The notes beneath the pieces were generated by a model. That model did not search any database. It was not told where the DNA came from and saw nothing but the letters and a program-made list of their open reading frames with translations. 32,000 nt of DNA from Trichodesmium erythraeum IMS101 (GTDB taxonomy: Bacteria > Cyanobacteriota > Cyanobacteriia > Cyanobacteriales > Microcoleaceae): NCBI RefSeq assembly GCF_000014265.1, contig NC_008312.1, positions 330,001 through 362,000 of the forward strand, read 5' to 3'. Of the stretch, positions 7,202 through 27,769 are shown piece by piece. The position numbers and the translations under genes are program-made. The stretch's first letter is position 1. Each line of letters begins with the position of its first letter.

Positions 7202-8224
7202 TTAAGCACCAATTTTAAATAAAGAACCCACAACTTGAGGAATATTTTCTAACTGCATTGCTGCCATTGCTGCTGTTGGTTCATAACCACAATGAACCAT
7301 ACAATCAGAACATTTAGGATTCCCACTTTTATAACCATAATTATTCCAATTAGTTTTCTCTATAAGTTCTTTAAAAGTAGCATAATACCCTTCATTCATT
7401 AAATAACAAGGTTTTTGCCAACCAAGCACACTATAGCTAGGACTACCCCAGGGAGTACAATCATAATCTTTTTCTCCCATCAAAAAGTCTAAAAATAGAG
7501 GATTATGGTTAAAATTCCAATTCTTTTTACCAGTTTTAAAAGGATTCAGAATTTCTTGAAATAACAATCGTGTTTGCTGTCGCTTCAGGAAATTATCCTG
7601 GTCTGGTGCCCACTCATAACTATAACCAGGAGAAATCATCATTCCATCAATATTTAAACTTTCTAAAAAATCAAAAAATTCCTGCATTTGTTTCGGGTCT
7701 GTTCCCTCAAATACAGTAGTATTAGTAGTAACTCGAAACCTTCTCGCTTTAGCAGCACGAATAGCTTCAACTGCTATTTGAAAAACCCCTTTTCTATCTA
7801 CACATTTATCGTGATTTGCCTGTAAACCATCAAGATGAACACTAAAAGTTAGATAAGGAGAAGGCTCAAATTTATCAAGATTCTTTTTGAGTAATAAACC
7901 ATTAGTACATAAATAAACAAATTTTTTCCGGTCAACTAACCCTTTGACAATTTCAGAAATTTGTGGATGTAATAAAGGCTCTCCTCCTGGAATAGAAACT
8001 ACAGGAGCACCACATTCTTCTACAGCAGTAAAACATTCTTGAGGTGTAAGATGTTGTTTTAATATTTCCTTGGGGTGCTGAATTTTGCCACAACCAGGGC
8101 AAGCTAAGTTACACCGAAACAAAGGTTCTAACATTAATACTAAAGGAAAATATTTGCGCCCTTTGAGTCGTTGAGTTAGAAGATATTTTCCGACTTCTAG
8201 AGCTTGTTGAAGTTGAATTGCCAT
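7202..8224 (-). CDS. hpnH: radical SAM protein, HpnH-like (adenosyl-hopene transferase, hopanoid side-chain biosynthesis)
   Basis: 340-aa ORF. It has the radical-SAM CxxxCxxC motif (CNLACPGCG), an N-terminal [20 protein letters not shown] and a C-terminal Cys cluster [11 protein letters not shown], all typical of HpnH. Confidence 0.75.
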
Positions 8225-9479: not shown

Positions 9480-10676
9480 ATGAAGTTTGTCTTAAACTCT
9501 CGAAATGTCTACGACTATTTAGTAGAAAATGGTTTATGTGATTCCCTACAGGAAGGGGAGCCATATCCTTCCCAGAACTCTCAGAGTAATGTTGAGCTAA
9601 TTAGTGCTAAGAATTTTAATTTATTGGTGACTTTGCCAGAGGGTCGAAAGCTTCTGGTTAAACAAGAACAATATAATTCTCAAGGAAAAACCCTTGGTGA
9701 GTTGTTTGGAGAATGGCGAATTCAAAAATTCTTACGGACATTTCCTGAACTTGACCATTGGCGTGTCTTTCTGCCAGAGTTGTTATTTCACGACCCTGAA
9801 AAGTCTATTGTGGTCTCTACTTACCTGGATAATTATCGAGATTTAAGTGATTTCTATTCTAAGGAAAATACTTTCCCTACAAAGGTTGCAGCTCAAATCG
9901 GTAATTTTTTGGGGACTGTTCACCGCGATACTTGGAATAGAGAAAATTATCGAGAGTTTTTTGCTAGTGAAGTTGTTAGTACTAAACCTGCAGTCTCCCC
10001 ACTTTTGGTGGATAGTCTCGAAAGGATAGGACCAGACATTTTTGGTATTGCTCCTGTAGATGGGTTGAGATTTTTTGCTCTTTATCAACGATATGACAGT
10101 TTGGGGAAAGCGATCGCTCAACTTCGCGAGACTTTATCTCCTACTTGTCTGACTCACAATGACCTGAAACTAAATAATATTCTCATGGCTCAAAATTGGG
10201 AAAATTCCGGTGAAAATATTGTGCGGTTAATTGATTGGGAAAGGTCTAGTTGGGGAGACCCTGCTTTTGATTTGGGAACGGCTATCAGCAGCTATCTGCA
10301 ACTTTGGTTGGGTAGTTTGGTTATTAGTAATTCTCTGAGTATAGAAGAATCTCTCAAATTTGCCACCACTCCCCTTGAATTACTTCAACCGTCTATTGCT
10401 GCTTTAGCTAAAGCTTATTTTGACACTTTCCCAGAAATTTTGGCATATCGTCCTGATTTTTTGAGACAAGTAGTACAGTTTGCAGGTTGGGGTTTGATGA
10501 CAGGAATTTTGTCAATGGTTCAATATCAAAAGACTTTTAATAATACGGGTATTGCGATGCTTCAGGTTGCCAAAGCATTATTATGTCGCCCTGACTCATC
10601 AATGTCTACAATTTTTGGTGTTGCTATTGAAGAAGTATTGAGGAGTCAGGAGCCAGGAGTCAGTAGAATGCATTAG
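9480..10676 (+). CDS. APH-fold phosphotransferase/kinase (candidate Ser/Thr-peptide kinase of a LxmK/TvaC-like dehydration pair)
   Basis: 398-aa ORF. It has the catalytic-loop motif HNDLKLNNIL (HxDxxxxN) and the metal-binding IDWERSSWGDPAFDLG, typical of the aminoglycoside/choline-kinase-like phosphotransferase fold. GAGAGG lies 9 nt upstream of the ATG. Confidence 0.75.
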   Translation: MKFVLNSRNVYDYLVENGLCDSLQEGEPYPSQNSQSNVELISAKNFNLLVTLPEGRKLLVKQEQYNSQGKTLGELFGEWRIQKFLRTFPELDHWRVFLPELLFHDPEKSIVVSTYLDNYRDLSDFYSKENTFPTKVAAQIGNFLGTVHRDTWNRENYREFFASEVVSTKPAVSPLLVDSLERIGPDIFGIAPVDGLRFFALYQRYDSLGKAIAQLRETLSPTCLTHNDLKLNNILMAQNWENSGENIVRLIDWERSSWGDPAFDLGTAISSYLQLWLGSLVISNSLSIEESLKFATTPLELLQPSIAALAKAYFDTFPEILAYRPDFLRQVVQFAGWGLMTGILSMVQYQKTFNNTGIAMLQVAKALLCRPDSSMSTIFGVAIEEVLRSQEPGVSRMH

Positions 10677-10838: not shown

Positions 10839-11948
10839 ATGCAATTACTTGAGTTTCCAAGTTATCACTTCCCTACTGGAGTAACTGGGCGATTAAAAGA
10901 AGTTTTATTAGACATTGTTGAGAGGGTAGAAATTTCCTCTGATTTTTCTATTCGTCATCCTGAGTATAAACCTTTAGATTTGCCTGCTGAGGTGGTTGCT
11001 CGTTTTCAGGCATTGCCAAAACAAATGCGGGATAAATATCTGAGTCTACAATTGCGTAGTTTTCTCTATGGTATCTATTATAATGGTTCGATGCAAACTT
11101 CCCTGGCATTGGATAGTGAGGAAAATAGTCGCCCATTAGATTTGGAGAATAATACTTTTCTTGGGGTAGAGATGGAGTTTTATATTCAGTTAGAAGAAAG
11201 TAATAGGGGAGAGGGGTATTTTGATTCTGGTTGGTCGGTGTTGAGGGAGGAAACTGATGGTGCTTTAGCTGTTACTAAGAATGGTTTGCGACTGCATATT
11301 GAACGAGAAAAGCATCTTCAAGAATCTCAGAAAGCTGCTGTTGTGGGGGATTCGGTAGCAATTCGGATGCCTAATAATTTGGTGCAAAATGGTTTCTATA
11401 TGGCGGTTGGTAATTTGGGTAGTCAGAGTCAGGTAGAGTCGGAAAGTCAATCTGGAGTGGTGCGAGTTTATTTTAACTTTACTTCTGAAGGTGCAGTAGT
11501 GGTCATGGGTAGTTTGACAGAGAAATTAAATGAGGTTGCTGTTCCTTTTAGTTTTAAAGTGTTGTATGCTCGTGATTATTATGATCGCTACGATGCTGGG
11601 GTACTCTATTTTGATAAGGATAATTATGAGTTGGTGAGGCAGGTTTTGTCGGATGTTTATGGGGAGAATAAATCTTATTTTAAATCAGAAATACCTTTAT
11701 TTACCATGGAGTTGGCACCGGGTTTGGGATTAGCTGAAGAGCCAGACAGGAAGTTTGCTAGTCAGGAAAGTTTTGGTATGAATAGGTGTCAGATGATAGC
11801 AAATGGATTATTGAAAGCTTGGGACCAGGGGGATAATTCGACTGAAGGAAGAATGAGGGCAATTTTGGAGCAATTTTCTTTATTGGGAATTGATTTGCAG
11901 CGTCCTTATTTGAATGCTAATTCTGAGGATGTTTATAGGGTGATATAG
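10839..11948 (+). CDS. HopA1-family-like protein (candidate phospho-Ser/Thr lyase partner of the kinase)
   Basis: 369-aa ORF directly downstream of the kinase on the same strand. Its size and sequence pattern (IRHPEYKPL, LRSFLYGIYYNG, LVQNGFYMA, GVLYFDK, GLGLAEEP..FGMNRC) match my recollection of cyanobacterial proteins annotated as the T3SS effector HopA1 family. This is not verifiable here. Confidence 0.5.
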   Translation: MQLLEFPSYHFPTGVTGRLKEVLLDIVERVEISSDFSIRHPEYKPLDLPAEVVARFQALPKQMRDKYLSLQLRSFLYGIYYNGSMQTSLALDSEENSRPLDLENNTFLGVEMEFYIQLEESNRGEGYFDSGWSVLREETDGALAVTKNGLRLHIEREKHLQESQKAAVVGDSVAIRMPNNLVQNGFYMAVGNLGSQSQVESESQSGVVRVYFNFTSEGAVVVMGSLTEKLNEVAVPFSFKVLYARDYYDRYDAGVLYFDKDNYELVRQVLSDVYGENKSYFKSEIPLFTMELAPGLGLAEEPDRKFASQESFGMNRCQMIANGLLKAWDQGDNSTEGRMRAILEQFSLLGIDLQRPYLNANSEDVYRVI

Positions 11949-11955
11949 TTTTTTT

Positions 11956-12347
11956 AGGTTGGGTTAAAGGACAGCGCCACCCAACAAGAACTCGTAAAGA
12001 TTAATTTTGAGATCAGGCTAATTATTTGTATGTGTTGGGCTTTGTTCCTCAACCCAACCTACACTATTTTCAATAATTTTTCAGTGGAACTGGGTTGGGT
12101 TAAGGGATAGGAAGTGAACAAAAGGTGGTATTTGTGAAGGTAGCGATCGCCTAAATTAACATGATTAATAGAACCGATGTTTATTAAAGAATAGTCTGGT
12201 GTAGGTGGGGTTAAGGGACAGCGAACCCAACAAAAAGCCTAACTAATGAAAATGGCGATCGCTAGGATCAGACAAAGATACTAAATGGTTCTACATTTTC
12301 TTCTAGTCTGGTGTAGGTTGGCTTAAGCGATCGCGCACACAACAACC
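11956..12347. repeat. cluster of 5 imperfect hairpin repeats (GGTTGGGTTAAGGGACAGCG.ACCCAACA type), one of them inverted
   Basis: Copies were read near 11957, 12041 (inverted), 12092, 12199 and 12311, at roughly 100-nt spacing. Each is internally self-complementary (GTTGGGT...ACCCAAC). This is a common Nostocales intergenic repeat class. Confidence 0.7.
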
Positions 12348-12412
12348 TATATCTGTGGTGTTTGGTTCTGGTGAGCAAACCCACGCCCCAGTTCAATAAT
12401 AATTTTTCAGTT

Positions 12413-12446
12413 CAGCTCCAGCTCAATTATGGGGCTGTTTTTTTTT
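12413..12446 (+). terminator. rho-independent terminator (likely ends the kinase/HopA1 transcript)
   Basis: CAGCTCCA-GCTCAATTA-TGGGGCTG forms an 8-bp stem with one G-U pair, followed by T9. Confidence 0.7.
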
Positions 12447-12486
12447 GACTTTTATTGTGGTTCGATACCATCAGAAAATAAAAAAA

Positions 12487-12511
12487 AGACATAATTGTGT
12501 GAGTTATGTCT
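12487..12511 (-). repeat. AGACATAA-N9-TTATGTCT hairpin, inverted relative to the 9351 copy (T-run on the minus strand)
   Basis: The reverse complement GAGACATAACTCACACAATTATGTCTTTTTTT aligns with 9351-9380. Both stem arms and the T-run are identical; only the loop differs. Confidence 0.45.
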
Positions 12512-12592
12512 CCAATAATTATCTTTTTTGATTTAATTAACTAGCTTTTAGCTAATTTTGAGTTAAAATGGATGATTATTAGTCGTTATTTC

Positions 12593-12620
12593 GAGACATA
12601 ATTGTGTCAATTAGATACAC
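12593..12620 (+). promoter_or_regulatory. half-decayed copy of the GAGACATAATT(A/G)TGTCA motif, about 47 nt upstream of a -35-like TTGCAT (12640-12645)
   Basis: GAGACATAATTGTGTCAATTAGATACAC shares its first 21 nt, apart from 2 mismatches, with 9351-9371. At 9351 the motif lies 46 nt upstream of a -35-like TTGTCA (9397-9402). Confidence 0.3.
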
Positions 12621-12750
12621 TTTGATTTTGTTCAACCCCTTGCATTTATAAGAAAGTTAGGTAATAATATAAGTGGAAAGAGACAAAACCAAGTCTGATT
12701 CCAAATCAACAAAGTTTATCTACTAATTTTACTTAAGGAGTAACTTAAAA

Positions 12751-12924
12751 ATGGCTAACATTAACATCTCTGATTTAAGTCCTGCTGGTGCGGACTTGTT
12801 CTTAGATTCTGAAAGCTACCTCAATGATTTGACTGAGGGAGAAATGACGAATACATTGGGTGGTAAAGGTAGCTTCACCTTTTGTGGTAAACGGATCTCA
12901 TGGAGTATCTGCTGGGGGTACTGA
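12751..12924 (+). CDS. double-glycine-leader peptide precursor A (57 aa; core KGSFTFCGKRISWSICWGY)
   Basis: Hand translation gives MANINISDLSPAGADLFLDSESYLNDLTEGEMTNTLGG|KGSFTFCGKRISWSICWGY*. AAGGAG lies 10 nt upstream. The leader fits the C39 consensus L(-12)xxxE(-8)M(-7)xxTxGG. The leader is conserved with only synonymous changes in the paralog at 13694. The ORF is below the track's size cutoff. Confidence 0.85.
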   Translation: MANINISDLSPAGADLFLDSESYLNDLTEGEMTNTLGGKGSFTFCGKRISWSICWGY

Positions 12925-13356
12925 TCATAAAATTAAGTAAAAAAAAAAGAAGAGAGTGATTTGGTGATTATTCCATCTTAGTATAAGTGAGAACTATGTC
13001 AACAATTCTTTCCTACCTTTTCTGACAGTTGATTTACTGTGACTAATTGACTAACTAATCTTGCTAGTTCCTCACTTTTGGTTACCTGGCACCATAGGCA
13101 CAGCTAAAAAACTGACCATCACTAATAAAAGGAAAATACCTCTTAAAAGTTTGCTACTTTAGTAATACTTTCTTGAGGTATTTTCTGTGCCTTATGTTGA
13201 CGACAAGACAAAAAAGCTGGAGGATTAGAATTTGTAGGTTGCAGGTTATCATTGTAGAGGTGTAGGTTAGGCGATCGCGCACACAACAACCTATATCTGT
13301 GGTGTTTGGTTCTGGTGAGCAAACCCACGCCCCAGTTCAATAATAATTTTTCAGTT

Positions 13357-13390
13357 CAGCTCCAGCTCAATTATGGGGCTGTTTTTTTTT
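13357..13390 (+). terminator. rho-independent terminator (duplicate of 12413-12446)
   Basis: The identical CAGCTCCA-GCTCAATTA-TGGGGCTG stem-loop is followed by T9. Confidence 0.7.
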
Positions 13391-13693
13391 GACTTTTATT
13401 GTGGTTCGATACCATCAGAAAATCAAAAAAGACATAATTGTGTGAGTTATGTCTCCAATAATTATCTTTTTTGATTTAATTAACTAGCTTTTAGCTAATT
13501 TCGAGTTAAAATGGATGATTATCAGTCGTTATTTTGAGACATAATTGTGTCAATTAGATACACTTTGATTTTGTTCAACCCCTTGCATTTATAAGAAAGT
13601 TAGGCAATAATATAAGTGGAAAGAGACAAAACCAAGTCTGATTCCAAATCAACAAAGTTTATCTACTAATTTTACTTAAGGAGTAACTTAAAA

Positions 13694-13852
13694 ATGGCTA
13701 ACATTAACATCTCTGATTTAAGTCCTGCTGGTGCTGACTTGTTCTTAGATTCTGAAAGCTATCTCAACGATTTGACTGAGGGAGAAATGACGAATACATT
13801 AGGAGGATCGAGGTGGTGGAACAGATTAAAAGATTGGTTTCGTACACGTTAA
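13694..13852 (+). CDS. double-glycine-leader peptide precursor B (52 aa; core SRWWNRLKDWFRTR)
   Basis: Hand translation gives MANINISDLSPAGADLFLDSESYLNDLTEGEMTNTLGG|SRWWNRLKDWFRTR*. It has the same AAGGAG SD as gene A. Six nucleotide differences from the gene A leader were counted, all synonymous third-position changes. Confidence 0.85.
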   Translation: MANINISDLSPAGADLFLDSESYLNDLTEGEMTNTLGGSRWWNRLKDWFRTR

Positions 13853-14300
13853 GCAGCACTAAGTACTTTTACGTGAGTCCTGATTAAATCTTAGTATAGG
13901 TTCAGAACTGTGTCAACAATTCTTTCCTACCTTTTCGACAGTTTCTTTGCTGTGACTAATTGACTAACTAATCTTGCTAGTTCCTCATTTTTGGTTACCA
14001 GGCACCATAGGCACAGCTAAAAAACTGACCATCACTAATAAAAGGAAAATACCTCTTAAAAGCTTGCTAGTTTAGTAATACTTTTTTGAGGCATTTTCTG
14101 TGCTTTATGTTGACTACAAGACTGCGTGACTCAACCCAAGCTACCCCATAAAAAGATATGACCCAGTGGAAAATGTGATGCTCAACTGGGTGATATTTGG
14201 CATTGACATCGGTTGGACTGAGGAGTAGAAAGCAGTAGTGTTGAGGGCGACAAGATCAGATGATGACGCCACCCCAAACCCTATAACTACTCCAATGAGA

Positions 14301-15062
14301 CTATGCAGCAATAAGTTTACTATTTAAATCTAAATCAATTAAAACTTCAACCGACTCAACTTGCTTCTTAAGCCACTCATCAAACAACTCCGCAAAAATC
14401 TGAGAGCGCAACTTATTATCTAACTCTGCTGAAATAATTTCCTCCACAAAAATCAAATGTACCCCCTTAGAAGTCACAATAGGTTTAATCATCTGGGGAG
14501 GTTTAGCCGCAAAAACAGCCGCAGAAATCTCTGGTTTCAAATCCTTACGATACAACACCCCTCGATATCCCCCCTGACGACGTAACTCTATATCTTCAAT
14601 GTATTCATGAGCCACATCATAGAAACTTGTTTCCCCTTCCTGAATAGCATAGAATAATTCCATCCCTAAATCTTGATCATCCAAAACCACCTCATACATC
14701 ACCACACCAGCATAATTCAATTGATTTTCATAAAAATATGGCTCAACTTTATCTGCAAACAGATGAGCCACCAATTTTTGAGCAACAACACTTATATAGA
14801 CAACTTCCTCAAAATCATCAATAGATAGACAAAACTTTTCTAACCAAGCAAAAGTGTCTTGGGCGCTATGAAGTTTATTTACAAACCTCATAGTATCTGC
14901 CGCTTTCTGCAGTTCTTCAGTCTCCACTTTTATACCCGCTTCCTTCGCTGCATTCAGAATAATCTCGCGAGTAATAATCTCTTCTTTCAGCTCAGAAGTT
15001 TTTAAAGATAACTTAATGTGCTTCAAAATATCTTCAGCAGTAATAATAATAGATTGTAACAT
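14301..15062 (-). CDS. parvulin/PpiC-type peptidyl-prolyl isomerase-like protein with no signal peptide
   Basis: 253-aa ORF. The C-terminal part (GGYRGVLYRKDLKPEISAAVFAAKPPQMIKPIVTSKGVHLIFVEE) resembles the PpiC rotamase core (GG.LG.f.rg.m.p.f..a.f....G....pv.t..G.H.i.v). The N-terminal part is helical and SurA-N-like. It is the last gene of the exporter operon. Confidence 0.65.
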   Translation of the reverse strand: MLQSIIITAEDILKHIKLSLKTSELKEEIITREIILNAAKEAGIKVETEELQKAADTMRFVNKLHSAQDTFAWLEKFCLSIDDFEEVVYISVVAQKLVAHLFADKVEPYFYENQLNYAGVVMYEVVLDDQDLGMELFYAIQEGETSFYDVAHEYIEDIELRRQGGYRGVLYRKDLKPEISAAVFAAKPPQMIKPIVTSKGVHLIFVEEIISAELDNKLRSQIFAELFDEWLKKQVESVEVLIDLDLNSKLIAA

Positions 15063-15346: not shown

Positions 15347-17230
15347 CTACAACTCTAAACCTCCTTTTTGTAACTTCTTAAACGGGTCAAGAATAAAATC
15401 AATCAAAGGACGCTGACGCACAACAACCTCAGCCGTTGCCGTATCCCCCGGACGCAAAACAACACACTCATTAGCAGTAGGAATACAATACTCATCCAAC
15501 TCAACCTTTAACTCATAAATAGCCACATTTCCCTCAGCAGTTTCCTGCATTTTTGAAGTAGGAGAAATCTCTTTCAACCATCCCCCAACTACACCATAAT
15601 CCTGAAAAGGATAGGCATCAAACTTCATTTTTACCTCCATTCCTTCCCTTAACGAACCACTTTCTGTAGTTGCCATATCCGCCTTTAATAAAAGACTCGT
15701 TTCCCTAGGAGCTATCTCCACTATCATCTCTCCTTGTTGCACAACATCTCCCACACCTTTGATGGGGAAATTAAAAATAGTACCTCCCTGTTGCGCCCTA
15801 ACTACTCGTTGCTCTAACTGAAAATTTAAAGAATCAATCTCTTTATTTGTCTGAGCAATTTCTCCTTGAATACTAACAATTTGACTATCCATACTCTGAA
15901 GTTGCTCTTGTATTTTTGATATAGCAATTTTCCCAGAATGAGTAATAGTTTTAGAGCTATTTTCTTGCTCATTCAAACGTAATTCAGCCTGCTTAATATC
16001 TGCCTTAACTTGATTAATTACCATTTCATAACTACTCTTTTGTTCTGCCAAACGTAACTCAGCTTGCTCAATATCTGCCTCCCCTTGATTAATAATTCTT
16101 TCATAACTACCTTTTTGCTCTGCCAAACGTAATTCAGCTTGCTTAATATCTGCCTTTCCTTGATGAATAACCCTCTTATAACTACCCTCTTGCTCTTCTA
16201 TTCGTAATTTAGCTTGCTCAATATCTGCTTGACTTTGCTCCAACATTCTTTGTCTTTCTCGCCCAATATTTTCATGCTCAACTAATTGTATTTCCGTCAC
16301 CACACCCTGGTCCCAAAGACCACGATAACGTTCTACTTCTTTCATAGCCTTTTCCCAGCGAATTTCTGATAATTGATAAGCAATTTGACTATCTTTTAAT
16401 TGTCGTTTTGCTTGATTGAATTGAGCCATTTTTTCTTCTTTCTGTAAACTCAACGCTCTCTTAAGAGCTCCCAAATTTTCTTCTGCTTGATAAACTTGTA
16501 CTAATTTTTCTTCCCTTTGTAAATTTAATGTTCTTCTGAGAGCCGCCAAATTTTGTTCTGCTTGATGAACTTGGGTCAGTTTTTCTTGTTCCTGTAAATT
16601 GTACATTGTTTTAAGAGATTGTGCGTTTTGTCGTGCTTGCCCCACTTGAGCTAATTTTTCTAATTTTTGAGATTCATTTTGTCGTTCTTGGGTACGAAGT
16701 TCAATTTCCAATTGATTTTTTTGTTGTTGAATCTTACTAAGTCGATTTTTCTGATTTTGCAGTTGAATTTGGAGTTGAGCAAGTCGGTCATGAATAGGGC
16801 GAGATTCTAATTCTATTAAAATATCTCCAGCCTTAATTTTATCCCCTTGTTTAACATAAACTTTCTCAACTTTTGCCGTTTGTGTATATGCGGTAAACGT
16901 TAAATTTAGCTCTTGTTTAAAAGTACCACCTTGAGGTTCTAAACGTCCTCTAGCTGAACCAGTTTCATCTACTTGAGAAAACATTCCCCAAGGGAGAGCG
17001 ATCGCTACAAATCCTATTAAAAGATATAGTAATCCTCGTGTCCAACGTTGTGGTAAAGCATCTAATAATTCTTTAGTAGCAAAAGACCAATCATCAACAG
17101 ATTCATCTAACTTTGTAACTGCTGTTTCTTGATAGTTAGAATTCTTCAAACTTTTTTCTAATGTTACTAAGTCAACCTCTAAAGGTTTATGACCATTTGA
17201 CTCTAAAGTTAAGTTCAATTCTTGTGGCAT
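15347..17230 (-). CDS. HlyD-family periplasmic adaptor (membrane fusion protein) with an expanded coiled coil
   Basis: 627-aa ORF with an N-terminal TM segment (GLLYLLIGFVAIALPWGMF). A lipoyl-like segment VYVKQGDKIKAGDILIELES pairs with the C-terminal GGTIFNFPIKGVGDVVQQGEMIVEIAP. The central coiled coil is long and Q/E/K-rich. Confidence 0.9.
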   Translation of the reverse strand: MPQELNLTLESNGHKPLEVDLVTLEKSLKNSNYQETAVTKLDESVDDWSFATKELLDALPQRWTRGLLYLLIGFVAIALPWGMFSQVDETGSARGRLEPQGGTFKQELNLTFTAYTQTAKVEKVYVKQGDKIKAGDILIELESRPIHDRLAQLQIQLQNQKNRLSKIQQQKNQLEIELRTQERQNESQKLEKLAQVGQARQNAQSLKTMYNLQEQEKLTQVHQAEQNLAALRRTLNLQREEKLVQVYQAEENLGALKRALSLQKEEKMAQFNQAKRQLKDSQIAYQLSEIRWEKAMKEVERYRGLWDQGVVTEIQLVEHENIGRERQRMLEQSQADIEQAKLRIEEQEGSYKRVIHQGKADIKQAELRLAEQKGSYERIINQGEADIEQAELRLAEQKSSYEMVINQVKADIKQAELRLNEQENSSKTITHSGKIAISKIQEQLQSMDSQIVSIQGEIAQTNKEIDSLNFQLEQRVVRAQQGGTIFNFPIKGVGDVVQQGEMIVEIAPRETSLLLKADMATTESGSLREGMEVKMKFDAYPFQDYGVVGGWLKEISPTSKMQETAEGNVAIYELKVELDEYCIPTANECVVLRPGDTATAEVVVRQRPLIDFILDPFKKLQKGGLEL

Positions 17231-17560: not shown

Positions 17561-20287
17561 CTACCCAACATCTAACTGTTGACGATTCAAATAATAATAA
17601 TGTCCCCGTTTCGCCATCAACTCTTCATGATTTCCCTGCTCAATTAATACCCCCCGATCCAACACTAAAATTAGATCAGCATTTCTCACAGTAGATAAAC
17701 GGTGAGCAATAATTAACGAAGTGCGACCCTGGAGAATAGTATTCAAATTCCTCTGAATAATTCGCTCCGACTCAACATCCAGATGAGAAGTAGCCTCATC
17801 AAAAACCAAAAAACAGGGTTTTCCTAACAAAGCACGAGCGATCGCTAATCTTTGCCGTTGACCACCAGACAACAAACCCCCACCTTCCCCTATCTGAGTT
17901 TCATAACCCATCGGCAACCGTTGAATAAACTCATCAGCACCAGCTAACCTAGCAGCATCCACAATATCTTCAAGAGTTGCAGAAGGACAAGCCATAGTCA
18001 AATTTTCCCGAATAGTGCCACCAAATAAAAAAGTATCCTGATCAACCACACCCACTTTATTCCGCAGGGATGGCAACGAAATCGCCGTGATATCGTAACC
18101 ATCAATCAAAATTTTCCCATCAGTAGGCGGATACAACCCCAAAACCAACTTAGAAATTGTTGTCTTCCCAGACCCAGAGCGCCCCACCAAAGCCACAGTT
18201 TGTCCAGCTTTCACCTCAAAACTCAGATTTTCCAAAACATTAATATCGCTTTCTGGGTGGTAACGGAAAGTCACATTATCAAAAATAATATTACCCCGTA
18301 GCTCCGTCAAATACTGACGTGCCTGAGATTGTAAATCTTCCTCAGGCTCAGTATCAATCACATCATTAATACGCTCCATGGCAATAACCACCTCCTGTAA
18401 CTGATTCCACAAAACCGTCAGTCGCTGAAAAGGGCTAATCACATTACCTATCAACATATTAAAAGCCACCAACTGCCCAATAGTTAACTCTCCCTGAATA
18501 ACCAACCAAGCTCCAAACCATAGTAACCCCGTCGTTACTAAAGATTCAATAGTTAAGCTAAACATTTGCAGTCGGTTACCCATCACCTGTCCAGAAAAGT
18601 TTTTTCTGATTGACTTATTCAGAAGTTCCTCCCACCGCCAGCGTACTGTTTGCTCAACTGCCAGAGATTTCACAGTATTTACACCAGTCAAAGATTGAAT
18701 CAGATAACTACTTTCTTCAGCTAGAGCGGCAAATATTTCTCTAGAGATTTTTTGGAGAAAGGGTGTAGCAATAAGTGCTAATAAAAAAAACGGTGGCACA
18801 ATAACCAATGCTAGCAAAGCCATCTTCCAGCTATACCAGAACATTAGCCCTACATAAACAAATACCGTCAGCAAATCTAAGACAATAGAAAGAGCTTCTC
18901 CAGTTAAGAAATTCTCAATTTTCCGGTTTTCTTGAACCCGAGCAATAATATCCCCCACATAACGAGACTCAAAAAAACTCATGGGTAGTCGGAATGTGTG
19001 GCGAATAAACCCAACGATCATGGCTATATGTACTCTATTAGCCGTGTGATCAAGGAGATATTGTCGCAAACCCGTCATAGCCACCTGAAATAAGCCAAAG
19101 AGCACTAAACCTAATCCCACTGCTGTTAGAGTTAGAGTGCTACCTTGAACAACTACCCGGTCTAGTAGTAGTTGGGTAAATAGAGGGGTAATAAGTCCAA
19201 ATATTTGAATTACTAGAGAAGTGATAAATACTTCCAATAGAACTTGTCCATGAGGACTGACCAACTCAAAAAATTGCCAGAAAGGAGTAGTGGTATCTTT
19301 AAGTTTTTTGATTAATGCAGTAGGTTGTAGGAGTAAAGTATAGCCAGTCCAACCAGCTTTAAATTCTGGATAAGTAAGATGGCGTTGACCAATAGCGGGG
19401 TCAGCGATGATCACCTGTTTATGGGTGACCTCATAGACTACCACATAATGTTTACCTTCCCAGTGAGCGATCGCTGGTAATTTTTGTTTAGCTAATTGAT
19501 CAAGACTTGCCTTAACTGGTCTGGTAGAATATCCAATGCTTTCTGCAGCAGCAGATAATCCTCGAAGTGAAGCACCGTTACGGTCTACATTAGCAATATC
19601 GCGCACCCTATTCACGCTGAAATTTTTGCCCCAGTAACGAGCAACCATGACTAAACAAGCCGCACCACAGTCAGAACCGCTTTGTTGGGCAAAGAATGGA
19701 TAGCGTCTGGTAATACGCTGCCAGAGATGACCTACTCTTTGGGTGGGACTAGGGAAATAGGCTTTGTTAATAGCTTTTTGTCCTATAACCTCTGGTTGCT
19801 CATATTCAGTCCTGTTAAATTCTGGCAGATTTTTACCCAAAGAATTGGGAATTTCTGGCTCCGCTTTTTTCTGTAGAGCATTAAGTTTGAGAGCAACTTG
19901 GTAAAGATGTTCTCGAATTTGAGGATGTTTTTTAATTAGTGGGAGTAGAGCTTCTCGAGAGAGATAGGAAAGTTTGAGATTTACTGATGCTCTAGCAGAG
20001 TAGGATAAAAAAGAGTTATCTGGAAATAGGGTAGATTCCCCAAATGAAGCTCCAGCAACAAGGGTAGTCATTAATTCACCCTCAGTATCTAAGAGTCTAA
20101 CTTTGCCTTTGGTGATTATATATATGCCGGTTTGAGCATCTGCTGTTTGCCAAAATTGACCGACTTTGGGCGTTAAATTTTCCATATTTTTCAAGCAACT
20201 TTCTATTTCCTGCTGTGAAAGTTGATATCCTAAGACATCACTAAGCTGCTCTTGAGTTAAACTTGGAGTGGATGCAGTTTTAACCAT
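17561..20287 (-). CDS. cyclic-nucleotide-binding domain / C39 peptidase / ABC transporter (bacteriocin-type, HetC-like exporter)
   Basis: 908-aa ORF.
- cNMP-binding signatures: FGESTLF and SARASV.
- C39 catalytic Cys context QQSGSDCGAACLVMV, and His in AIAHWEGKHYVVVYEV.
- TMD.
- Walker A GRSGSGKTT, signature LSGGQRQRLAIARAL, Walker B LVFDEATSHLD. Confidence 0.92.
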   Translation of the reverse strand: MVKTASTPSLTQEQLSDVLGYQLSQQEIESCLKNMENLTPKVGQFWQTADAQTGIYIITKGKVRLLDTEGELMTTLVAGASFGESTLFPDNSFLSYSARASVNLKLSYLSREALLPLIKKHPQIREHLYQVALKLNALQKKAEPEIPNSLGKNLPEFNRTEYEQPEVIGQKAINKAYFPSPTQRVGHLWQRITRRYPFFAQQSGSDCGAACLVMVARYWGKNFSVNRVRDIANVDRNGASLRGLSAAAESIGYSTRPVKASLDQLAKQKLPAIAHWEGKHYVVVYEVTHKQVIIADPAIGQRHLTYPEFKAGWTGYTLLLQPTALIKKLKDTTTPFWQFFELVSPHGQVLLEVFITSLVIQIFGLITPLFTQLLLDRVVVQGSTLTLTAVGLGLVLFGLFQVAMTGLRQYLLDHTANRVHIAMIVGFIRHTFRLPMSFFESRYVGDIIARVQENRKIENFLTGEALSIVLDLLTVFVYVGLMFWYSWKMALLALVIVPPFFLLALIATPFLQKISREIFAALAEESSYLIQSLTGVNTVKSLAVEQTVRWRWEELLNKSIRKNFSGQVMGNRLQMFSLTIESLVTTGLLWFGAWLVIQGELTIGQLVAFNMLIGNVISPFQRLTVLWNQLQEVVIAMERINDVIDTEPEEDLQSQARQYLTELRGNIIFDNVTFRYHPESDINVLENLSFEVKAGQTVALVGRSGSGKTTISKLVLGLYPPTDGKILIDGYDITAISLPSLRNKVGVVDQDTFLFGGTIRENLTMACPSATLEDIVDAARLAGADEFIQRLPMGYETQIGEGGGLLSGGQRQRLAIARALLGKPCFLVFDEATSHLDVESERIIQRNLNTILQGRTSLIIAHRLSTVRNADLILVLDRGVLIEQGNHEELMAKRGHYYYLNRQQLDVG

Positions 20288-20400: not shown

Positions 20401-21063
20401 TTAAATAACTAAAGTGTTGAAAGTTAACGTTTCCAAATCAGAGTTAACATTTTGCTCTGAGGTCAGGTCGCGAATTGCAATGTTTTTTCTCTTGGCATTT
20501 TGACTAATAGTTTCATCAGTTTGAGCTGATAATGTTTTAGTAGATAATCCCATCTTTTTGATTAAACGGTTAATATGGCGATCGCTAAATTCTACCCCAA
20601 ATTCTTTAGCTAAATGTTTCCCTAAGCAATTAGCAGTCCACCGCTCAAATGCATAACCACATTTCTTAGGACTATTAGTTAATAACTCTTTCAACCGCTC
20701 TAAATATTGTTCATTAACTTCTTGAGGACGACCTATAGGGTGATTCTTCCATTGTTGAGCTTGACCAGACTGAGCAATAAATATCCAGTATCTAGCTGTA
20801 GCTAGAGAACAACCTATAGCCTCACGGATCTGGGTCTGGGTTTTGCCTTCATCTGCTAGAAGCATGATTTCTATTCTCTGGCGATATTGCCTGGTCAACT
20901 TCTTATCTAGACTTTTTTCTAACAATTTACGCTGAAAAGACGTCAAGCAGCTGCCGTGTAAACTTGACTCATTCATTGTGATTTTGGATTTTGAGTGATT
21001 GTATAACATAGGTTTATAATTATTTTTTGACACTCCAGTTTTTCTCACAGAGATATTTCTCAA
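20401..21063 (-). CDS. stand-alone HTH protein resembling the N-terminal DNA-binding half of IS630-type transposases (possible locus regulator); start codon uncertain
   Basis: 220-aa ORF. It reads LLADEGKTQTQIREAIGCSLATARYWI ... GRPQEVNEQYLERLKELL ... YAFERWTANCLGKHLAKEFGVEFSDRHINRLIKKMGLS, a homeodomain-like plus winged-helix pattern. No DDE half follows; the ABC gene starts 113 nt downstream. An alternative start MNESS lies at about 20976. Confidence 0.6.
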   Translation of the reverse strand: MRNISVRKTGVSKNNYKPMLYNHSKSKITMNESSLHGSCLTSFQRKLLEKSLDKKLTRQYRQRIEIMLLADEGKTQTQIREAIGCSLATARYWIFIAQSGQAQQWKNHPIGRPQEVNEQYLERLKELLTNSPKKCGYAFERWTANCLGKHLAKEFGVEFSDRHINRLIKKMGLSTKTLSAQTDETISQNAKRKNIAIRDLTSEQNVNSDLETLTFNTLVI

Positions 21064-22377: not shown

Positions 22378-23694
22378 ATGAATAAAGAAATATTTGAATA
22401 TATTTATTCCTCTCAATTAACAAAGAATGACGAAAAAACACTAAAGTTATTATTTGCTAATAAGCAACGTAAAGAAATTGCTAAAGCCCTCAAGTGTGTA
22501 GAGACAAATGTTAGTCACAAATTCAAAGCGATCGCTAAAAAATTCAACTATTTAGAATCTAATCAGAATTGTAAAGCAACAGAATACTTAGTTAAGATAT
22601 TTAGCCAATATAAACCTGATATGGTTGATCAACAACTAATTAAATCTTATGCTTCTTATCCAATTTTAATGCCAGATAAACCTGAAGAACCAGACTCCCC
22701 TTTTTATATAGAACGTCATCAGATTCCACGTCGTTCTGTTGAATCTCAATGCTACGAGACTATAGAAAGACCAGGTTCTTTAATCAGAATAAAAGCACCC
22801 AAAAAAATGGGTAAAACTTCTCTGATCAATCAGATACAAGCCAAAGCAAATGACAATAATTATATTTCTCAGTATCTGAGATTCGATCTTTTGATTGAGC
22901 CCCCAAATATCAGTAGTGTTAATAATTTTATTAAAGCATTTAATAAAATCATCAAAAGTCGGTTCCCAGATGTTTCAAAAGGCTCTAATTGGGATAATAA
23001 TAATGCTAAAATTTCTTGTACTAAAGATTTAAAATCACTATTGCTGAATTTACAGAAAAACTTAGTTTTAATATTAGATGAAGTGGATGAAATTTTCCAA
23101 TATCCAGAAATAACTAAAGATTTTTGTGGGATGTTAAGACATTGGTATGAAGAAAGTAATAATGTCAAAATTTGGAAAAATTTACGAATAGTAATTGCTT
23201 ATTCTACAGAATATCATGGCAAATTAGATATTTATCAATCTCCTTTTAATGTAGGCAGCTCAATAGAATTAAAGGAGTTTACAAAAGAAGAAGTAACTCG
23301 ATTAATATTCTTATACCAACTTGACCCCAAAATAGTGACTGATTTAATGTCTATGGTAGGAGGGCATCCTTATTTAATTAGGTTAGCTTTATATAGAATG
23401 TCTCAGGAAGAATTGACAATTGAAAAATTCTTAAAAGAAGCCCCCACTGATAGTGGAATTTATCGAGACCATTTCAGCAGACATTTAGAAACTATAGACA
23501 AAAGGTCAAAAATTAAAACAGTTTTTCAAGAAATATTAAAAGCTAATGAACCAGTCAGTTTTTCTGATAAAAATAGAGAGGTACGTCAGCTAGAAGCTAT
23601 GGGATTAATTAAAATTGAAGGTAATAAGGCTAAAACTGGTTGTCAGTTATATCAAAAATATTTTGGAGAGTTTTTATTAGGCATTAGGTTTTAG
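22378..23694 (+). CDS. LuxR/sigma70-region-4-like HTH fused to an AAA-like (AAA_35-type) NTPase domain
   Basis: 438-aa ORF.
- N-terminal LTKNDEKTLKLLFANKQRKEIAKALKCVETNVSHKFKAIAKKF resembles a LuxR-type HTH.
- Walker A APKKMGKTS and Walker B LVLILDEVDE.
- SPFNVGSSIELKEFTKEEV and GGHPYLIRLAL are typical of cyanobacterial AAA-like domain proteins. Confidence 0.65.
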   Translation: MNKEIFEYIYSSQLTKNDEKTLKLLFANKQRKEIAKALKCVETNVSHKFKAIAKKFNYLESNQNCKATEYLVKIFSQYKPDMVDQQLIKSYASYPILMPDKPEEPDSPFYIERHQIPRRSVESQCYETIERPGSLIRIKAPKKMGKTSLINQIQAKANDNNYISQYLRFDLLIEPPNISSVNNFIKAFNKIIKSRFPDVSKGSNWDNNNAKISCTKDLKSLLLNLQKNLVLILDEVDEIFQYPEITKDFCGMLRHWYEESNNVKIWKNLRIVIAYSTEYHGKLDIYQSPFNVGSSIELKEFTKEEVTRLIFLYQLDPKIVTDLMSMVGGHPYLIRLALYRMSQEELTIEKFLKEAPTDSGIYRDHFSRHLETIDKRSKIKTVFQEILKANEPVSFSDKNREVRQLEAMGLIKIEGNKAKTGCQLYQKYFGEFLLGIRF

Positions 23695-24243: not shown

Positions 24244-26607
24244 ATGTATCATGATACTGGAGGAAGCTTATCAGCAGACGACCCGACTTATGTAGAAAGG
24301 AAACAAGATAGAGAACTATTGGAAAAACTCCTAAAAGGAGAATATTGTTATGTGTTTAATGCTCGTCAAATGGGTAAGTCTAGTTTGCGGGTAAAAGTTA
24401 TAGATAGATTAACACATCAATTAAGTTCCCAAGGTTGCCAATGCATCTCAATTGATATGAGTATGTTGTCTGATTTTTCGATACCAAAAGAATCTTGGTA
24501 TGATGGTTTTTTAATTGAGCTATTAGATAGATGTGACTTAGAAAATAGTAGCAATTATCAAGACTGGATAGCTACTCATCGAAACTTAAAAATTAATAAT
24601 CCTCAGCGTTGCAAACTGTTTATTGAAGAAATTTTATTTATTAATTTTCCTACTCAGAAAATATATATTTTTCTTGATGAAATTGATACATTGGGAAAAT
24701 CTTATTTTAAACAAGAATTTTTAGGTTTTATTCGGTCTTGTTATAATCGCCGTGCTGAGGATAAAAATTCTGATTATCATCGATTAGTTTTTGTTTTTTT
24801 TGGTGCAGTTACTCCAGGAGATTTAATTCGAGATATAAGACAGACTCCTTTTAATATTGGCTATGGAATTGAGTTAACTGAATTAAGTTTTTTAGAAACC
24901 AAGAAAAAATTAATTCAGGGATTAGAAGAATTTGTAGAAAAGCCAGATATTGTGTTAAAAAAAGTTTTTGATTGGACTGGAGGCCAACCTTTTTTAACTC
25001 AAAAAAGTTGTCAAATTATTGTTGATTATGCTGATACTACTCAAGTAGATGTTGATAGTTTGCTAGAAAAAAATATTGTCAAAGATTGGGAAGATAAAGA
25101 TAATCCTATTCATTTAAAACATATACGGGATTATTTACTTAGTGACATTGAATTACTGAGACTATATCAAAAGGTTCTTAAGAAGGGAGAAGTTAAATTT
25201 AATAATAGTAAAGTACAGATGTCTTTAAAGTTATCAGGTATAGTTCTAAAAAAACAAGATAAATTAGTTGTTTTTAATAAGATTTATCAGAAAGTTTTTA
25301 ATCCAGATTGGGTTGAGGAACAGTTAGCAAACTTAGAAAATAATCTGGATTTACCTAAACTTAAAAGATTAAGTTCAAGTTGGGTTATTGTTAGTTTAGT
25401 ATGGGTATTAGCCATTATTATGAGAGCTTTAGGTTGGCTCCAACCATTTGAGTTAAATGAGTTTGATCGCTTAATGCAATGGCGACCCAAAGAAAAACGA
25501 GACCCTAATATTTTAATTGTTGAAGCTACACAAACAGACATTAAAAAATATGGTAAAGGTGGGACTTTAAAAGATAAGATATTGGCTGATGTAATAAAAA
25601 AAATAAATACTTTACAACCGGCAATTATTGGTTTAGATTTGTGGCGGGAGAAAGCTTTAGGTTCTGAGGCTGATTATCAAAATTTATTGACTCTTTTGGA
25701 AAATAATCAGAAAATAATTGCTGTTTGTAGTACCAGTGAAAATAGCCCAAATAAATCTGGTACAAGACCTCCTGAAGGAGTGCCAAAAGAACGTTTAGGT
25801 TTTACTGATGTAGTTCTTGATAATGGTCAAGTTGACATTGTCCGTCGCCACTTAATGTTTATGGGTTTAGAAGAGAAAGATCCTTGTAAAACACAGTATT
25901 CATTGAGTACTATAGTGGCCTTAGATTTTTTGGAAATTAAAGGAGTTAAAGCCAAAAATATTTCCTCGGAGAGTATTAGAATTGGTAATGTTACTTTCAG
26001 GAAACTGAGAAAAGGAAATGGTATTTATGAAAAACTTGACGATGGTGGATTTCAAATTTTACTTAACTATAGAAATTCTCATCATATAGATAATAGAGTA
26101 GCTCAAAAAATTAGTATTTCGGAAGTTTTGGATGGGAACATTAATGATTCTTTAGTTAAGGATAAAATTGTCATTATTGGCATTACAGACCGTACTTCTG
26201 GTGACAAGTTTTATACTCCTTATAGTAATGTTCAGCCTCCTAATCAAAAGCAAATGCCTGGTGTTATTATACACGCACACAAGGTCAGTCAAATTATTAG
26301 TGCAGTTTTATATGGCAGACCTTTGATTATTTTTTGGAGTTGGTGGGTAGAATGGCTATGGATTTTTGCTTGGTCTTTTTTGAGTTATGTGATCGGACAT
26401 TTTTTTCGAGGTTTTTTATTTTTCTTATTTGTAGGAGGAAATATTATTGTTTTATATTCGGTTAGTTTGTTTTTTCTAGTTCAAGGTTTTGTAGTTCCAT
26501 TAGTACCATCTATTTTGGTCTTAATTGTGAATACTGTCATTATTTTCGTTGATGATTCTCACTTTTTTAAGACCAGGAAGCTCCCAGGACCGGTAGAAGA
26601 GGAATAG
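24244..26607 (+). CDS. AAA-like (AAA_35-type) NTPase fused to a membrane-anchored CHASE2 sensor domain
   Basis: 787-aa ORF.
- Walker A NARQMGKSS, Walker B IYIFLDEIDT, FNIGYGIELTELS and GGQPFLTQ are paralogous to 22378-23694.
- A TM segment at aa ~379-399 is followed by CHASE2-like LQPFELNEFDRLMQWRP, ILIVEATQTDI and PGVIIHAHKVSQII.
- Three C-terminal TM helices follow (aa ~695-770).
- No kinase, cyclase or protease output domain is present. Confidence 0.7.
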   Translation: MYHDTGGSLSADDPTYVERKQDRELLEKLLKGEYCYVFNARQMGKSSLRVKVIDRLTHQLSSQGCQCISIDMSMLSDFSIPKESWYDGFLIELLDRCDLENSSNYQDWIATHRNLKINNPQRCKLFIEEILFINFPTQKIYIFLDEIDTLGKSYFKQEFLGFIRSCYNRRAEDKNSDYHRLVFVFFGAVTPGDLIRDIRQTPFNIGYGIELTELSFLETKKKLIQGLEEFVEKPDIVLKKVFDWTGGQPFLTQKSCQIIVDYADTTQVDVDSLLEKNIVKDWEDKDNPIHLKHIRDYLLSDIELLRLYQKVLKKGEVKFNNSKVQMSLKLSGIVLKKQDKLVVFNKIYQKVFNPDWVEEQLANLENNLDLPKLKRLSSSWVIVSLVWVLAIIMRALGWLQPFELNEFDRLMQWRPKEKRDPNILIVEATQTDIKKYGKGGTLKDKILADVIKKINTLQPAIIGLDLWREKALGSEADYQNLLTLLENNQKIIAVCSTSENSPNKSGTRPPEGVPKERLGFTDVVLDNGQVDIVRRHLMFMGLEEKDPCKTQYSLSTIVALDFLEIKGVKAKNISSESIRIGNVTFRKLRKGNGIYEKLDDGGFQILLNYRNSHHIDNRVAQKISISEVLDGNINDSLVKDKIVIIGITDRTSGDKFYTPYSNVQPPNQKQMPGVIIHAHKVSQIISAVLYGRPLIIFWSWWVEWLWIFAWSFLSYVIGHFFRGFLFFLFVGGNIIVLYSVSLFFLVQGFVVPLVPSILVLIVNTVIIFVDDSHFFKTRKLPGPVEEE

Positions 26608-26893: not shown

Positions 26894-27769
26894 ATGAAAT
26901 ATAAACAAGTTATTATTTGTGCTTTGGGATTATTGGTAGGAATGACTCAACTAGTTTGGGGGGAATTTCAAAACCCACAAACAAGTAGACCAGGGAACAA
27001 ACGAGATCGGGGGAATCACATGACAGAAAGTAGACCAGAGCAGAGGAAAAAGAAGCCACCAGTTAATATGCCAATAAAGCATAAACCGTTTGAAAGCCCA
27101 CCAATAAGTAGACCAGGGAACAGAGGAGATGCGGGGCATCAGGCGATAGAACCTCATGGAGATGGACGGACTAGAGGTCCTAATAATCCTGCTGAATTAT
27201 GTCTTCAAATGGAAAAGCCTCTTTTGGCTCTCATTCCTCAAAGCAACTTCGGATACACTTTAGCAAGTCATCCGACTTTTTGGTTATATCTTCCTGGCTA
27301 TAACAACTCTATTAATTTCACTTTGAAGGATGAAGATACTGGAAAGGAAATTTATCAAACTAAGTTTAATGTTGAATCTGAACGGGGAATTATTAGTTTG
27401 AAGTTACCTTCTGCTGCACCGCGTTTACAGGTAGGAAAAGAATATCGTTGGCAATTTGTTTTTAACTGTAGAAATGAGTCCAAGAATTTATCTGTTGAAG
27501 CAGTGGTTGCGCGGAAGGCAACTACCGAGAGTTTGACTAGTCAGTTGAGCTCGGCTACAACTGTGATGGAAATGATAGATATTTATGGGAAAAATGGTTT
27601 GTGGCATGAGACTATTACGACATTAGGAAACTTGCGCCGGAGTTATCCTAATAATGTAGCGATCGCCACTAGATGGAATAGTTTATTGGAGCAAGATGGT
27701 ATCCGTTTTCCAGACTATGATTTGACTAAGACCGAGATTCAAAATTGTTGTAATGTTTCCGATCAGTAG
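26894..27769 (+). CDS. secreted DUF928-family protein
   Basis: 291-aa ORF with a signal-peptide-like N-terminus (VIICALGLLVGMTQLVWG). A basic Gly/Pro/Arg-rich segment ends in GDGRTRG. PLLALIPQSNFGYTLASHPTFWLYLPG and YRWQFVFNC resemble the DUF928 core as I recall it. GAGGGA SD upstream. Confidence 0.6.
   Translation: MKYKQVIICALGLLVGMTQLVWGEFQNPQTSRPGNKRDRGNHMTESRPEQRKKKPPVNMPIKHKPFESPPISRPGNRGDAGHQAIEPHGDGRTRGPNNPAELCLQMEKPLLALIPQSNFGYTLASHPTFWLYLPGYNNSINFTLKDEDTGKEIYQTKFNVESERGIISLKLPSAAPRLQVGKEYRWQFVFNCRNESKNLSVEAVVARKATTESLTSQLSSATTVMEMIDIYGKNGLWHETITTLGNLRRSYPNNVAIATRWNSLLEQDGIRFPDYDLTKTEIQNCCNVSDQ

Follow-up and report, generated by a model that had tools for sequence, protein, structure and literature searches.

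Ser-x3-Cys spacing in the precursor cores of a kinase/lyase peptide locus of Trichodesmium erythraeum

Described systems and the Trichodesmium locus

Precursors of peptides made by ribosomes and modified after translation (RiPPs) that accompany a HopA1 protein and a phosphotransferase have been described from cyanobacteria as Family 1A, with 183 biosynthetic gene clusters (Eyles et al. 2021, PMC8153245). The same peptides were named type-B putative class V LanAs (Liang et al. 2022, PMC9486802), and exporter/SurA modules were catalogued by Wang et al. 2011 (PMC3140520). In the literature searched, the cyanobacterial LanK/LanY family was represented by bioinformatic mentions only, and no characterized product was found. 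Here we analyzed a 32,000-nucleotide (nt) stretch of Trichodesmium erythraeum IMS101 (contig NC_008312.1, positions 330,001 to 362,000 of the forward strand; hereafter the window), which encodes a small peptide, precursor A, downstream of a kinase and a HopA1-family lyase. Judged by its genes and leader, this locus is a member of Family 1A/type-B LanA, a group known bioinformatically. Like the described members it is cyanobacterial, couples a conserved double-glycine leader to a hypervariable core and has several non-identical precursors beside an APH kinase/HopA1 pair, with no difference in kind. What is new here is that a Ser and a Cys separated by three residues (S-x3-C) occur in the cores far above chance, independently of position, a signal missed by column-based logos.

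Class Va systems (LxmK/LxmY, CaoK/CaoY and RosK/RosY) share with the window a split kinase and HopA1-type lyase; both chains of PDB 9DK1, the LxmK/LxmY lexapeptide dehydratase heterodimer (PMC12141560), are matched, and the Arg/Lys/Arg/Tyr set of the lyase is common to both. In rosin A1, the lanthionine between residues 6 and 10 (Lan6-10) is an S-x3-C ring that closes non-enzymatically after RosK-RosY dehydration, the complex being only a kinetic aid, and dehydroalanine (Dha) is favoured over dehydrobutyrine (Dhb) in rosin ring closure (PMC12291118). The rings predicted here for precursor A share with Lan6-10 both the S-x3-C spacing and closure without a cyclase. Class Va is actinobacterial, whereas the window locus is cyanobacterial and combines a double-glycine leader with C39-ABC export. 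In addition, the window open reading frames (ORFs) include no LanX, LanD, F420 reductase or methyltransferase, and the class Va motif Dhx-Dhx-x-x-Cys differs from the Trichodesmium-type motif, S-hydrophobic-x-hydrophobic-C.

Other lanthipeptides resemble the locus in part. In nisin ring A, S3-I-S5-L-C7, Ser3 makes a lanthionine with Cys7 and Ser5 stays Dha. The S-x-S-x-C pattern of ring A in nisin and subtilin is identical to that of the two motifs in the core of precursor A (core A). However, nisin is made by a glutamyl-tRNA-dependent LanB and a zinc cyclase LanC, neither of which is in the window; its lipid II-binding ring A/B context is absent from core A, and core A has the motif twice in tandem. 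Prochlorosins of marine picocyanobacteria (ProcM, class II) are alike in that numerous precursors join a nearly constant leader to unrelated cores, a library at the population level, but they use a single LanM and a Nif11/NHLP-type leader, whereas the window has a kinase/lyase pair and a leader from another family. Two Ser and one Cys also lie close together in labyrinthopeptin-type labionin peptides (class III). These peptides need a LanKC and an SxxSxxxC motif, both lacking at the window locus, in which the second hydroxyl residue is unconserved. By pattern, nisin ring A appears the better analogy for core A than labionin.

For comparison, one genome per species was scanned, which yielded 160 loci with a relative of the lyase, and the best 80 of the 160 were compared (related loci). 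All 80 are cyanobacterial, with lyases of 57-91% identity. The features of the window that bear on precursor A are as follows.

9480-10676, forward strand: LanK-like APH-fold Ser/Thr kinase (K61, H226-N-D228...N233, D252; Pfam APH, 1.6e-11)
10839-11948, forward strand: LanY-like HopA1-family phospho-Ser/Thr lyase (R209, K240, R250, Y257; PF17914, 7.8e-61)
12735-12740, forward strand: ribosome-binding site AAGGAG, 10 nt 5' of the precursor A ATG (read directly; recurs in the second cassette)
12751-12924, forward strand: precursor A ORF, translating to the leader MANINISDLSPAGADLFLDSESYLNDLTEGEMTNTLGG and then the core KGSFTFCGKRISWSICWGY
12751-12864, forward strand: precursor A leader, 38 residues, double-glycine type (leader hidden Markov model, HMM, matches in at least 67 related loci)
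12865-12924, forward strand: core A, KGSFTFCGKRISWSICWGY, 19 residues coded by 12865-12921, with the stop codon at 12922-12924 (close homologues P0001 and P0002)
12871-12885, forward strand: motif 1, S3-F-T5-F-C7, with a predicted lanthionine Ser3-Cys7 and Thr5 possibly a ring-internal Dhb (ring suggested by the family-wide S-x3-C enrichment)
12898-12912, forward strand: motif 2, S12-W-S14-I-C16, with a predicted lanthionine Ser12-Cys16 and Ser14 possibly a ring-internal Dha

A preliminary description of this DNA had placed the start of core A at 12865, reported two S-x-S/T-x-C motifs nine residues apart, and pointed to a kinase/lyase pair nearby. Translation confirms the start, the motifs and their nine-residue offset, and the pair is present at the coordinates above. 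The motifs had also been described as flanked by aromatic residues; the aromatic or hydrophobic residues lie instead inside them, at +1 and +3 from Ser, and just after Cys.

The kinase and lyase genes lie directly upstream of the precursors on the same strand, with the export genes downstream on the opposite strand. By profile matches and by sequence matches to PDB chains, the two proteins are homologous to LxmK/LxmY, a class V lanthipeptide dehydratase. The kinase matches the NCBIfam LxmK model at 1.4e-28 (100 bits) and PDB 9dk1_A (LxmK) at 8e-6, and its catalytic loop is intact, with K61, HND...N and D252/IDWE kept in a comparison of 77 orthologues. For the lyase, PDB 9dk1_B (LxmY) is matched at 1.9e-7, with R209, K240, R250 and Y257 paired with identical LxmY residues; in a set of 83 cyanobacterial homologues, each of these four is kept by 97% or more. 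They correspond to R187, K219, R229 and Y236 of CaoY, with the same +10/+17 spacing from the Lys to the second Arg and the Tyr. The roles of these CaoY residues were validated by mutation, and R187 and K219 are essential for phosphate elimination (PMC9486802).

Thus the class V components LanK and LanY are found in the window, and those that distinguish class Va (LanX, LanD) or Vb (LanC) are not. No window ORF matched LanC/LANC_like or LanM. Among window ORFs of at least 80 amino acids (aa), a single APH ORF is present, leaving no second one as LanX, and no LanD/flavoprotein decarboxylase was found, which implies that no S-aminovinyl-cysteine (AviCys) is made. Likewise, no class III LanKC was found among window ORFs. 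Two other genes were considered as modifying enzymes. A PpiC/SurA-like protein was set aside as a cyclase, as it travels with the HlyD/ABC operon and occurs in clusters without modification genes (PMC3140520). The radical SAM (rSAM) gene at 7202-8224 was rejected as a maturase because it encodes HpnH of hopanoid biosynthesis (544 bits vs TIGR03470); it is distinct from the rSAM/SPASM genes of 17 related loci.

The precursor A ORF looks real, as judged from the leader, the ribosome-binding site and its homologues. The N-terminal half of the leader, MANINISDLSPAGADLFLDSESY, is kept across cyanobacterial LanK/LanY loci, and the C-terminal half, LNDLTEGEMTNTLGG, is the double-glycine export/cleavage signal. 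Among the matches listed, two metagenomic proteins, P0001 and P0002, are homologous to the whole precursor with 91-93% identity; they retain both ring Ser and both Cys, have Gly in place of Ser14, and their core reads KGSFTFCGKERSWGICWGY. Close analogues of core A are also found in Microcystis and in a metagenome-assembled genome (AGSITICWQDKTTRMRSISICWD and AGSVSICFNTKKTRRISITICW). The exact precursor A protein had no match among the gene calls of a large public contig collection, and the gene is therefore unannotated. At the DNA level the two motifs do not repeat each other, because their codons differ (agc ttc acc ttt tgt in motif 1, tca tgg agt atc tgc in motif 2), Ser3 and Ser12 being drawn from different codon families. 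When the 19 residues of core A were permuted, at least two S-x-[ST]-x-C motifs arose in 1.1e-4 of shuffles and at least two S-x3-C motifs in 1.2e-2.

The S-x3-C signal and the predicted rings

A protein search with precursor A gave 174 matches from Trichodesmium, Okeania and marine metagenomes, which share a near-invariant 38-residue leader and have unrelated cores; the best 120 of the 174 yielded 119 unique cores (sibling cores). These cores (P0001-P0120) include Cys-free Thr/Ile-rich, Trp/Arg-rich and Cys-rich types (WSRWCSCRCCWGWG), many with internal repeats. S-x3-C was observed 115 times in the sibling cores vs 20.3 +/- 4.2 in shuffles, an approximately 5.5-fold excess, and T-x3-C was present once. 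No comparable enrichment was seen at other Ser-Cys spacings in the same cores, and S-x1-C was depleted (11 vs 22.6 expected). The excess persisted when the cores were reduced to 69 dissimilar representatives, with 61 occurrences vs 11.1 +/- 2.9 and a maximum of 19 in 1000 shuffles. Other cyanobacterial genera, represented independently by 153 cores from 67 loci, showed it too (43 vs 9.0 +/- 2.7).

The composition of these motifs shows which positions are kept. Between the fixed Ser and Cys, 66 different inner sequences occur in the sibling cores; F, L, I or V predominate at the hydrophobic positions +1 and +3, and the residue after Cys is often Trp. Ser or Thr occupies the middle position in 9 of the 115 sibling motifs, at or below the 13.8% Ser+Thr content of the cores, and in 2 of the 43 motifs from other genera. 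The latter have Ser/Thr at +1 in 31 of 43 cases and there read S-[ST]-x-x-C, corresponding to the Dhx-Dhx-x-x-Cys motif of substrate-controlled rings, which is known to direct lanthionine formation (PMC12291118). Ser precedes 115 of the 211 sibling-core Cys by four residues. In 31 sibling cores every Cys has such a Ser, and six of these cores have a single Cys, so an internal disulfide is impossible there. As read from the cores, the selected unit is Ser-hydrophobic-x-hydrophobic-Cys, usually repeated, and not S-x-S/T-x-C. The proposal of two thioether rings made in the preliminary description is therefore upheld in part: the duplicated, patterned Ser...Cys beside a dehydratase and the S-x3-C excess speak for it, whereas its definition by S-x-S/T-x-C fails on the scarcity of the middle Ser/Thr. 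For genome mining, the useful signature would be a position-independent S-x3-C rather than a conserved alignment column or S-x-S/T-x-C.

An i-to-i+4 lanthionine has as its signature a Ser fixed four residues before Cys together with an adjoining Ser/Thr dehydratase. With moderate confidence, we propose that precursor A acquires two local lanthionines of this kind through a LanK/LanY-type dehydratase, without a cyclase, and is then exported. What we infer from sequence comprises the dehydration of the core A peptide, ring formation, ring topology and cyclase-independence. The kinase and HopA1-type lyase would act as a heterodimer, like LxmK/LxmY and CaoK/CaoY. The N-terminal half of the leader would guide phosphorylation of Ser3 and Ser12, followed by phosphate elimination to dehydroalanines; Thr5 and Ser14 would probably also be acted on. 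Cys7 would then add to Dha3 and Cys16 to Dha12, giving two small rings of the size of nisin ring A or rosin Lan6-10. Thr5 and Ser14 would stay outside the crosslinks, either as ring-internal Dhb5 and Dha14 or unmodified. Finally, the cNMP-C39-ABC/HlyD exporter would cut after Gly-Gly and secrete the 19-residue product, with a predicted monoisotopic mass of 2153.01 Da (-4 H2O) or 2189.03 Da (-2 H2O), against calculated values of 2225.055 Da for the unmodified core and 2223.039 Da for its disulfide form.

Ring closure would be substrate-controlled, because the window encodes no LanC, LanM or LanX, and the kinase-lyase complex might accelerate it. That the ring residue is almost always Ser and not Thr fits cyclase-free closure, since Dha is a better Michael acceptor than Dhb. 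Adjacent S-x3-C motifs are separated by 0-1 residues in 17 of 49 pairs, which argues against a hairpin or cross-strand design in the family.

Several points weigh against this proposal. The score of the kinase, 100 bits, lies under the curated LxmK cutoff of 315 bits. The rosin precedent relies on a Dha-Dhb-x-x-Cys motif (PMC12291118), whereas at +1 the Trichodesmium-type motif is hydrophobic; with such a residue in place of Dhb, closure need not be spontaneous, regioselective and stereoselective. Sibling cores partly share descent, so the shuffle statistics overstate their independence. No Cys is present in 42 of the 119 sibling cores and no Ser, Thr or Cys in 4, and the Cys-free cores imply that the leader by itself does not predict lanthionine formation. 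In the cores of the family, Eyles et al. observed neither Ser nor Thr nor Cys to be conserved (PMC8153245). It is also possible that a cyclase is encoded outside the window.

More tentatively, Trichodesmium and Okeania may hold a prochlorosin-like library of well over 100 cores on an invariant leader, processed by the two-enzyme LanK/LanY system with no cyclase, in which tandem units would self-close into strings of Dha-derived lanthionines. If true, these would be the first characterized cyanobacterial class V-type lanthipeptides, with an enzyme-free, sequence-encoded patterning of rings used combinatorially. Formation of the two rings in core A would in itself give a first structural handle on a widespread, uncharacterized cyanobacterial RiPP family with homologues in about 160 species. 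It would also mean that a kinase/lyase pair alone suffices for polycyclic lanthipeptides when the core encodes S-x3-C, which would be useful for peptide engineering. Trichodesmium is a globally important marine nitrogen fixer, and core diversity in environmental data is extreme; given this occurrence and diversity, the peptides are candidates for colony-level or microbiome interactions.

Alternative accounts of core A

Core A could instead be an unmodified, class II bacteriocin-like peptide, with a leader that serves C39/ABC export only, Cys residues that are free or joined in a disulfide, and a kinase/lyase pair that acts elsewhere. We consider this unlikely, although it is the main alternative; a disulfide between the two Cys had already been raised in the preliminary description. 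Double-glycine leaders, C39-ABC, HlyD and SurA-like modules do occur without modification genes in group I clusters of cyanobacteria (PMC3140520), and the window contains both the double-glycine leader and the C39-ABC/HlyD exporter. The Cys-free cores and the four lacking Ser, Thr and Cys altogether point in the same direction; 30 sibling cores have exactly two Cys, and a hairpin stapled by a disulfide would be in keeping with the alternating hydrophobic pattern. However, a disulfide gives no reason for the Ser four residues before Cys (z of about 17-22) and leaves unexplained both the exclusion of Thr from that position and the S-x3-C motif of single-Cys cores. Cores with an odd number of Cys exist as well (19 with three, 3 with five). 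In addition, the kinase/lyase pair is immediately upstream and is syntenic with the leader family in about 80 species, which does not fit a pair that acts elsewhere.

A second account retains thioether bridges but assigns them another topology, with crossed or nested Dha3-Cys16 and Dha12-Cys7 bridges, or with Cys addition to Dhb5 or Dha14 to form i-2 rings. By sequence arithmetic, Ser3 with Cys16 and Cys7 with Ser12 fall in the same antiparallel hairpin register, an arrangement open to any S-x3-C pair, and the four-residue basic linker GKRI of core A could form the turn. Cyclase-free regiochemistry is dictated by the substrate, and RosA1 forms a non-native Lan15-25 (PMC12291118). Against this, the 0-1 residue linkers and the six single-motif cores indicate a local design, the S-x1-C spacing is depleted and the middle Ser/Thr is unconserved. 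Such topologies seem to us quite unlikely, and the two local i-to-i+4 lanthionines remain the preferred reading.

That the precursor A ORF is a silent or decaying copy of the cassette, without a product, is very unlikely. The exact protein is missing from the gene calls of the large collection, and the region is repeat-rich and recombining. However, the ORF and its ribosome-binding site are intact, as are all cluster genes; the region upstream is 98% identical to that of a second precursor, precursor B, and between the two leaders there are 6 synonymous changes and none that is non-synonymous. The 91-93% homologues, which come from independent metagenomes, keep both S...C pairs.

The labionin-like double crosslink raised in the preliminary description, with two Ser/Thr and one Cys per motif, draws on Ser/Thr at positions 1 and 3 of both motifs (chance of 1.1e-4 within the peptide), but it is extremely unlikely: the middle Ser/Thr is no more frequent than background and is Gly in the nearest homologue, the window has no LanKC, the spacing is not SxxSxxxC, a difference already remarked on in that description, and no labionin from a LanK/LanY system was found in the literature searched.

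Tandem cassette, related loci and neighbouring genes

Precursor A lies in the first of two tandem cassettes, the second of which encodes precursor B.

13694-13852, forward strand: precursor B, same leader, Cys-free core SRWWNRLKDWFRTR (exact protein recorded as Trichodesmium erythraeum, P0038)
12323-12857, forward strand: upstream arm of the cassette, which takes in a hairpin, the 5' region and the leader as far as the Gly-Gly codons (98% identical to 13267-13800)
12975-13209, forward strand: downstream arm of the cassette (93% identical to 13888-14122)

The leader copy of precursor B spans 13694-13807, and the absence of non-synonymous changes between the two leaders directly indicates protein-level selection on the reading frame. 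Identity between the arms breaks off just 5' of the Gly-Gly codons and returns about 50 nt past the stop codon, implying that the core alone has been exchanged. The tandem cassette has the look of a recombination scaffold built into the locus for swapping cores. About 300 nt 5' of each precursor ATG, at 12419-12447 and 13363-13391 on the forward strand, there is a terminator-like hairpin with a T-run, identical in the two copies; these paired hairpins suggest that the cassettes are separate transcription units, each with an extended 3' region (about 440 nt). Scanned against Rfam, the cassette region gave no match, and in a promoter scan matches were no more frequent than in shuffled sequence. 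A third precursor was not found, the leader HMM detecting only the two known copies in all six frames of the window.

Three copies of a repeat of about 42 nt (TAGTCTGGTGTAGGTGGGGTTAAGGGACAGCG..CCCAACAA) lie between lyase gene and first cassette, at 11945-11986, 12192-12233 and 12304-12345, and several GCGATCGC (HIP1-like) sites accompany them. The only long contig with precursor B, an ENA metagenome scaffold (L081, 1-936), ends within the tandem repeat, 935 bp 5' of precursor B. Evidently the tandem cassette is a point at which assemblies break, which may explain the absence of precursor A from public gene calls.

Core B has no Cys, and a Ser directly follows its Gly-Gly site. If this Ser were dehydrated, removal of the leader would expose an N-terminal Dha, which would hydrolyze to a pyruvyl cap, by analogy with the 2-oxobutyryl N-terminus of rosin A1.

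The remaining genes of the cluster lie downstream.

14301-15062, reverse strand: PpiC/SurA-like protein, in the export operon (in 60 of 80 related loci, adjoining the HlyD and ABC genes)
15347-17230, reverse strand: HlyD-family membrane fusion protein (profile matches and synteny)
17561-20287, reverse strand: ABC exporter with cNMP-binding and C39 peptidase domains, predicted to cleave after Gly-Gly and export the peptide (profile matches and synteny)
20401-21063, reverse strand: helix-turn-helix (HTH) protein resembling the N-terminus of IS630 transposase (kept beside the ABC gene in related loci)

The order kinase, HopA1 and precursor(s), followed by reversed PpiC-like, HlyD and C39-ABC genes, is conserved in about 80 cyanobacterial species. 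HopA1 was present in all 80 related loci, the kinase in 78, the PpiC-like protein in 60, and HlyD and the ABC exporter in 53 each. The leader HMM matched 178 short ORFs in these loci.

Some related loci carry additional enzymes. In 25 of the 80, an aldo-keto-reductase-like ORF of 338 aa overlaps the end of the HopA1 gene and is accompanied by a second PpiC paralogue, neither of which is in the window (examples are L046, 11113-12129 and 12216-12971, and L030, 12653-13669). This ORF may be a Dha/Dhb reductase that yields D-amino acids. The rSAM/SPASM genes of the 17 related loci mentioned above occur with Nif11 precursors and are not found in the window. LanM, also absent from the window, occurs in 6 of the 80 loci, in which a class II LanM (DUF4135 and LANC_like) directly follows the kinase/HopA1 pair (e.g., L070, 11071-13989). 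The precursors of these six loci have the same leader family and Thr/Cys-rich cores. A LanM beside the kinase/HopA1 pair and the same leader family imply two dehydration systems in one cluster.

The HTH protein adjoins the ABC exporter gene in 40 of the 80 related loci and shows 51% identity to its counterpart in L035 (20381-21091); it is probably a domesticated cluster regulator rather than insertion sequence (IS) debris. Two AAA_35 ATPase genes and a DUF928 gene also adjoin the cluster (22378-23694, 24244-26607 and 26894-27769), one AAA_35 gene being fused to a region of LuxR-type HTH similarity and the other to CHASE2.

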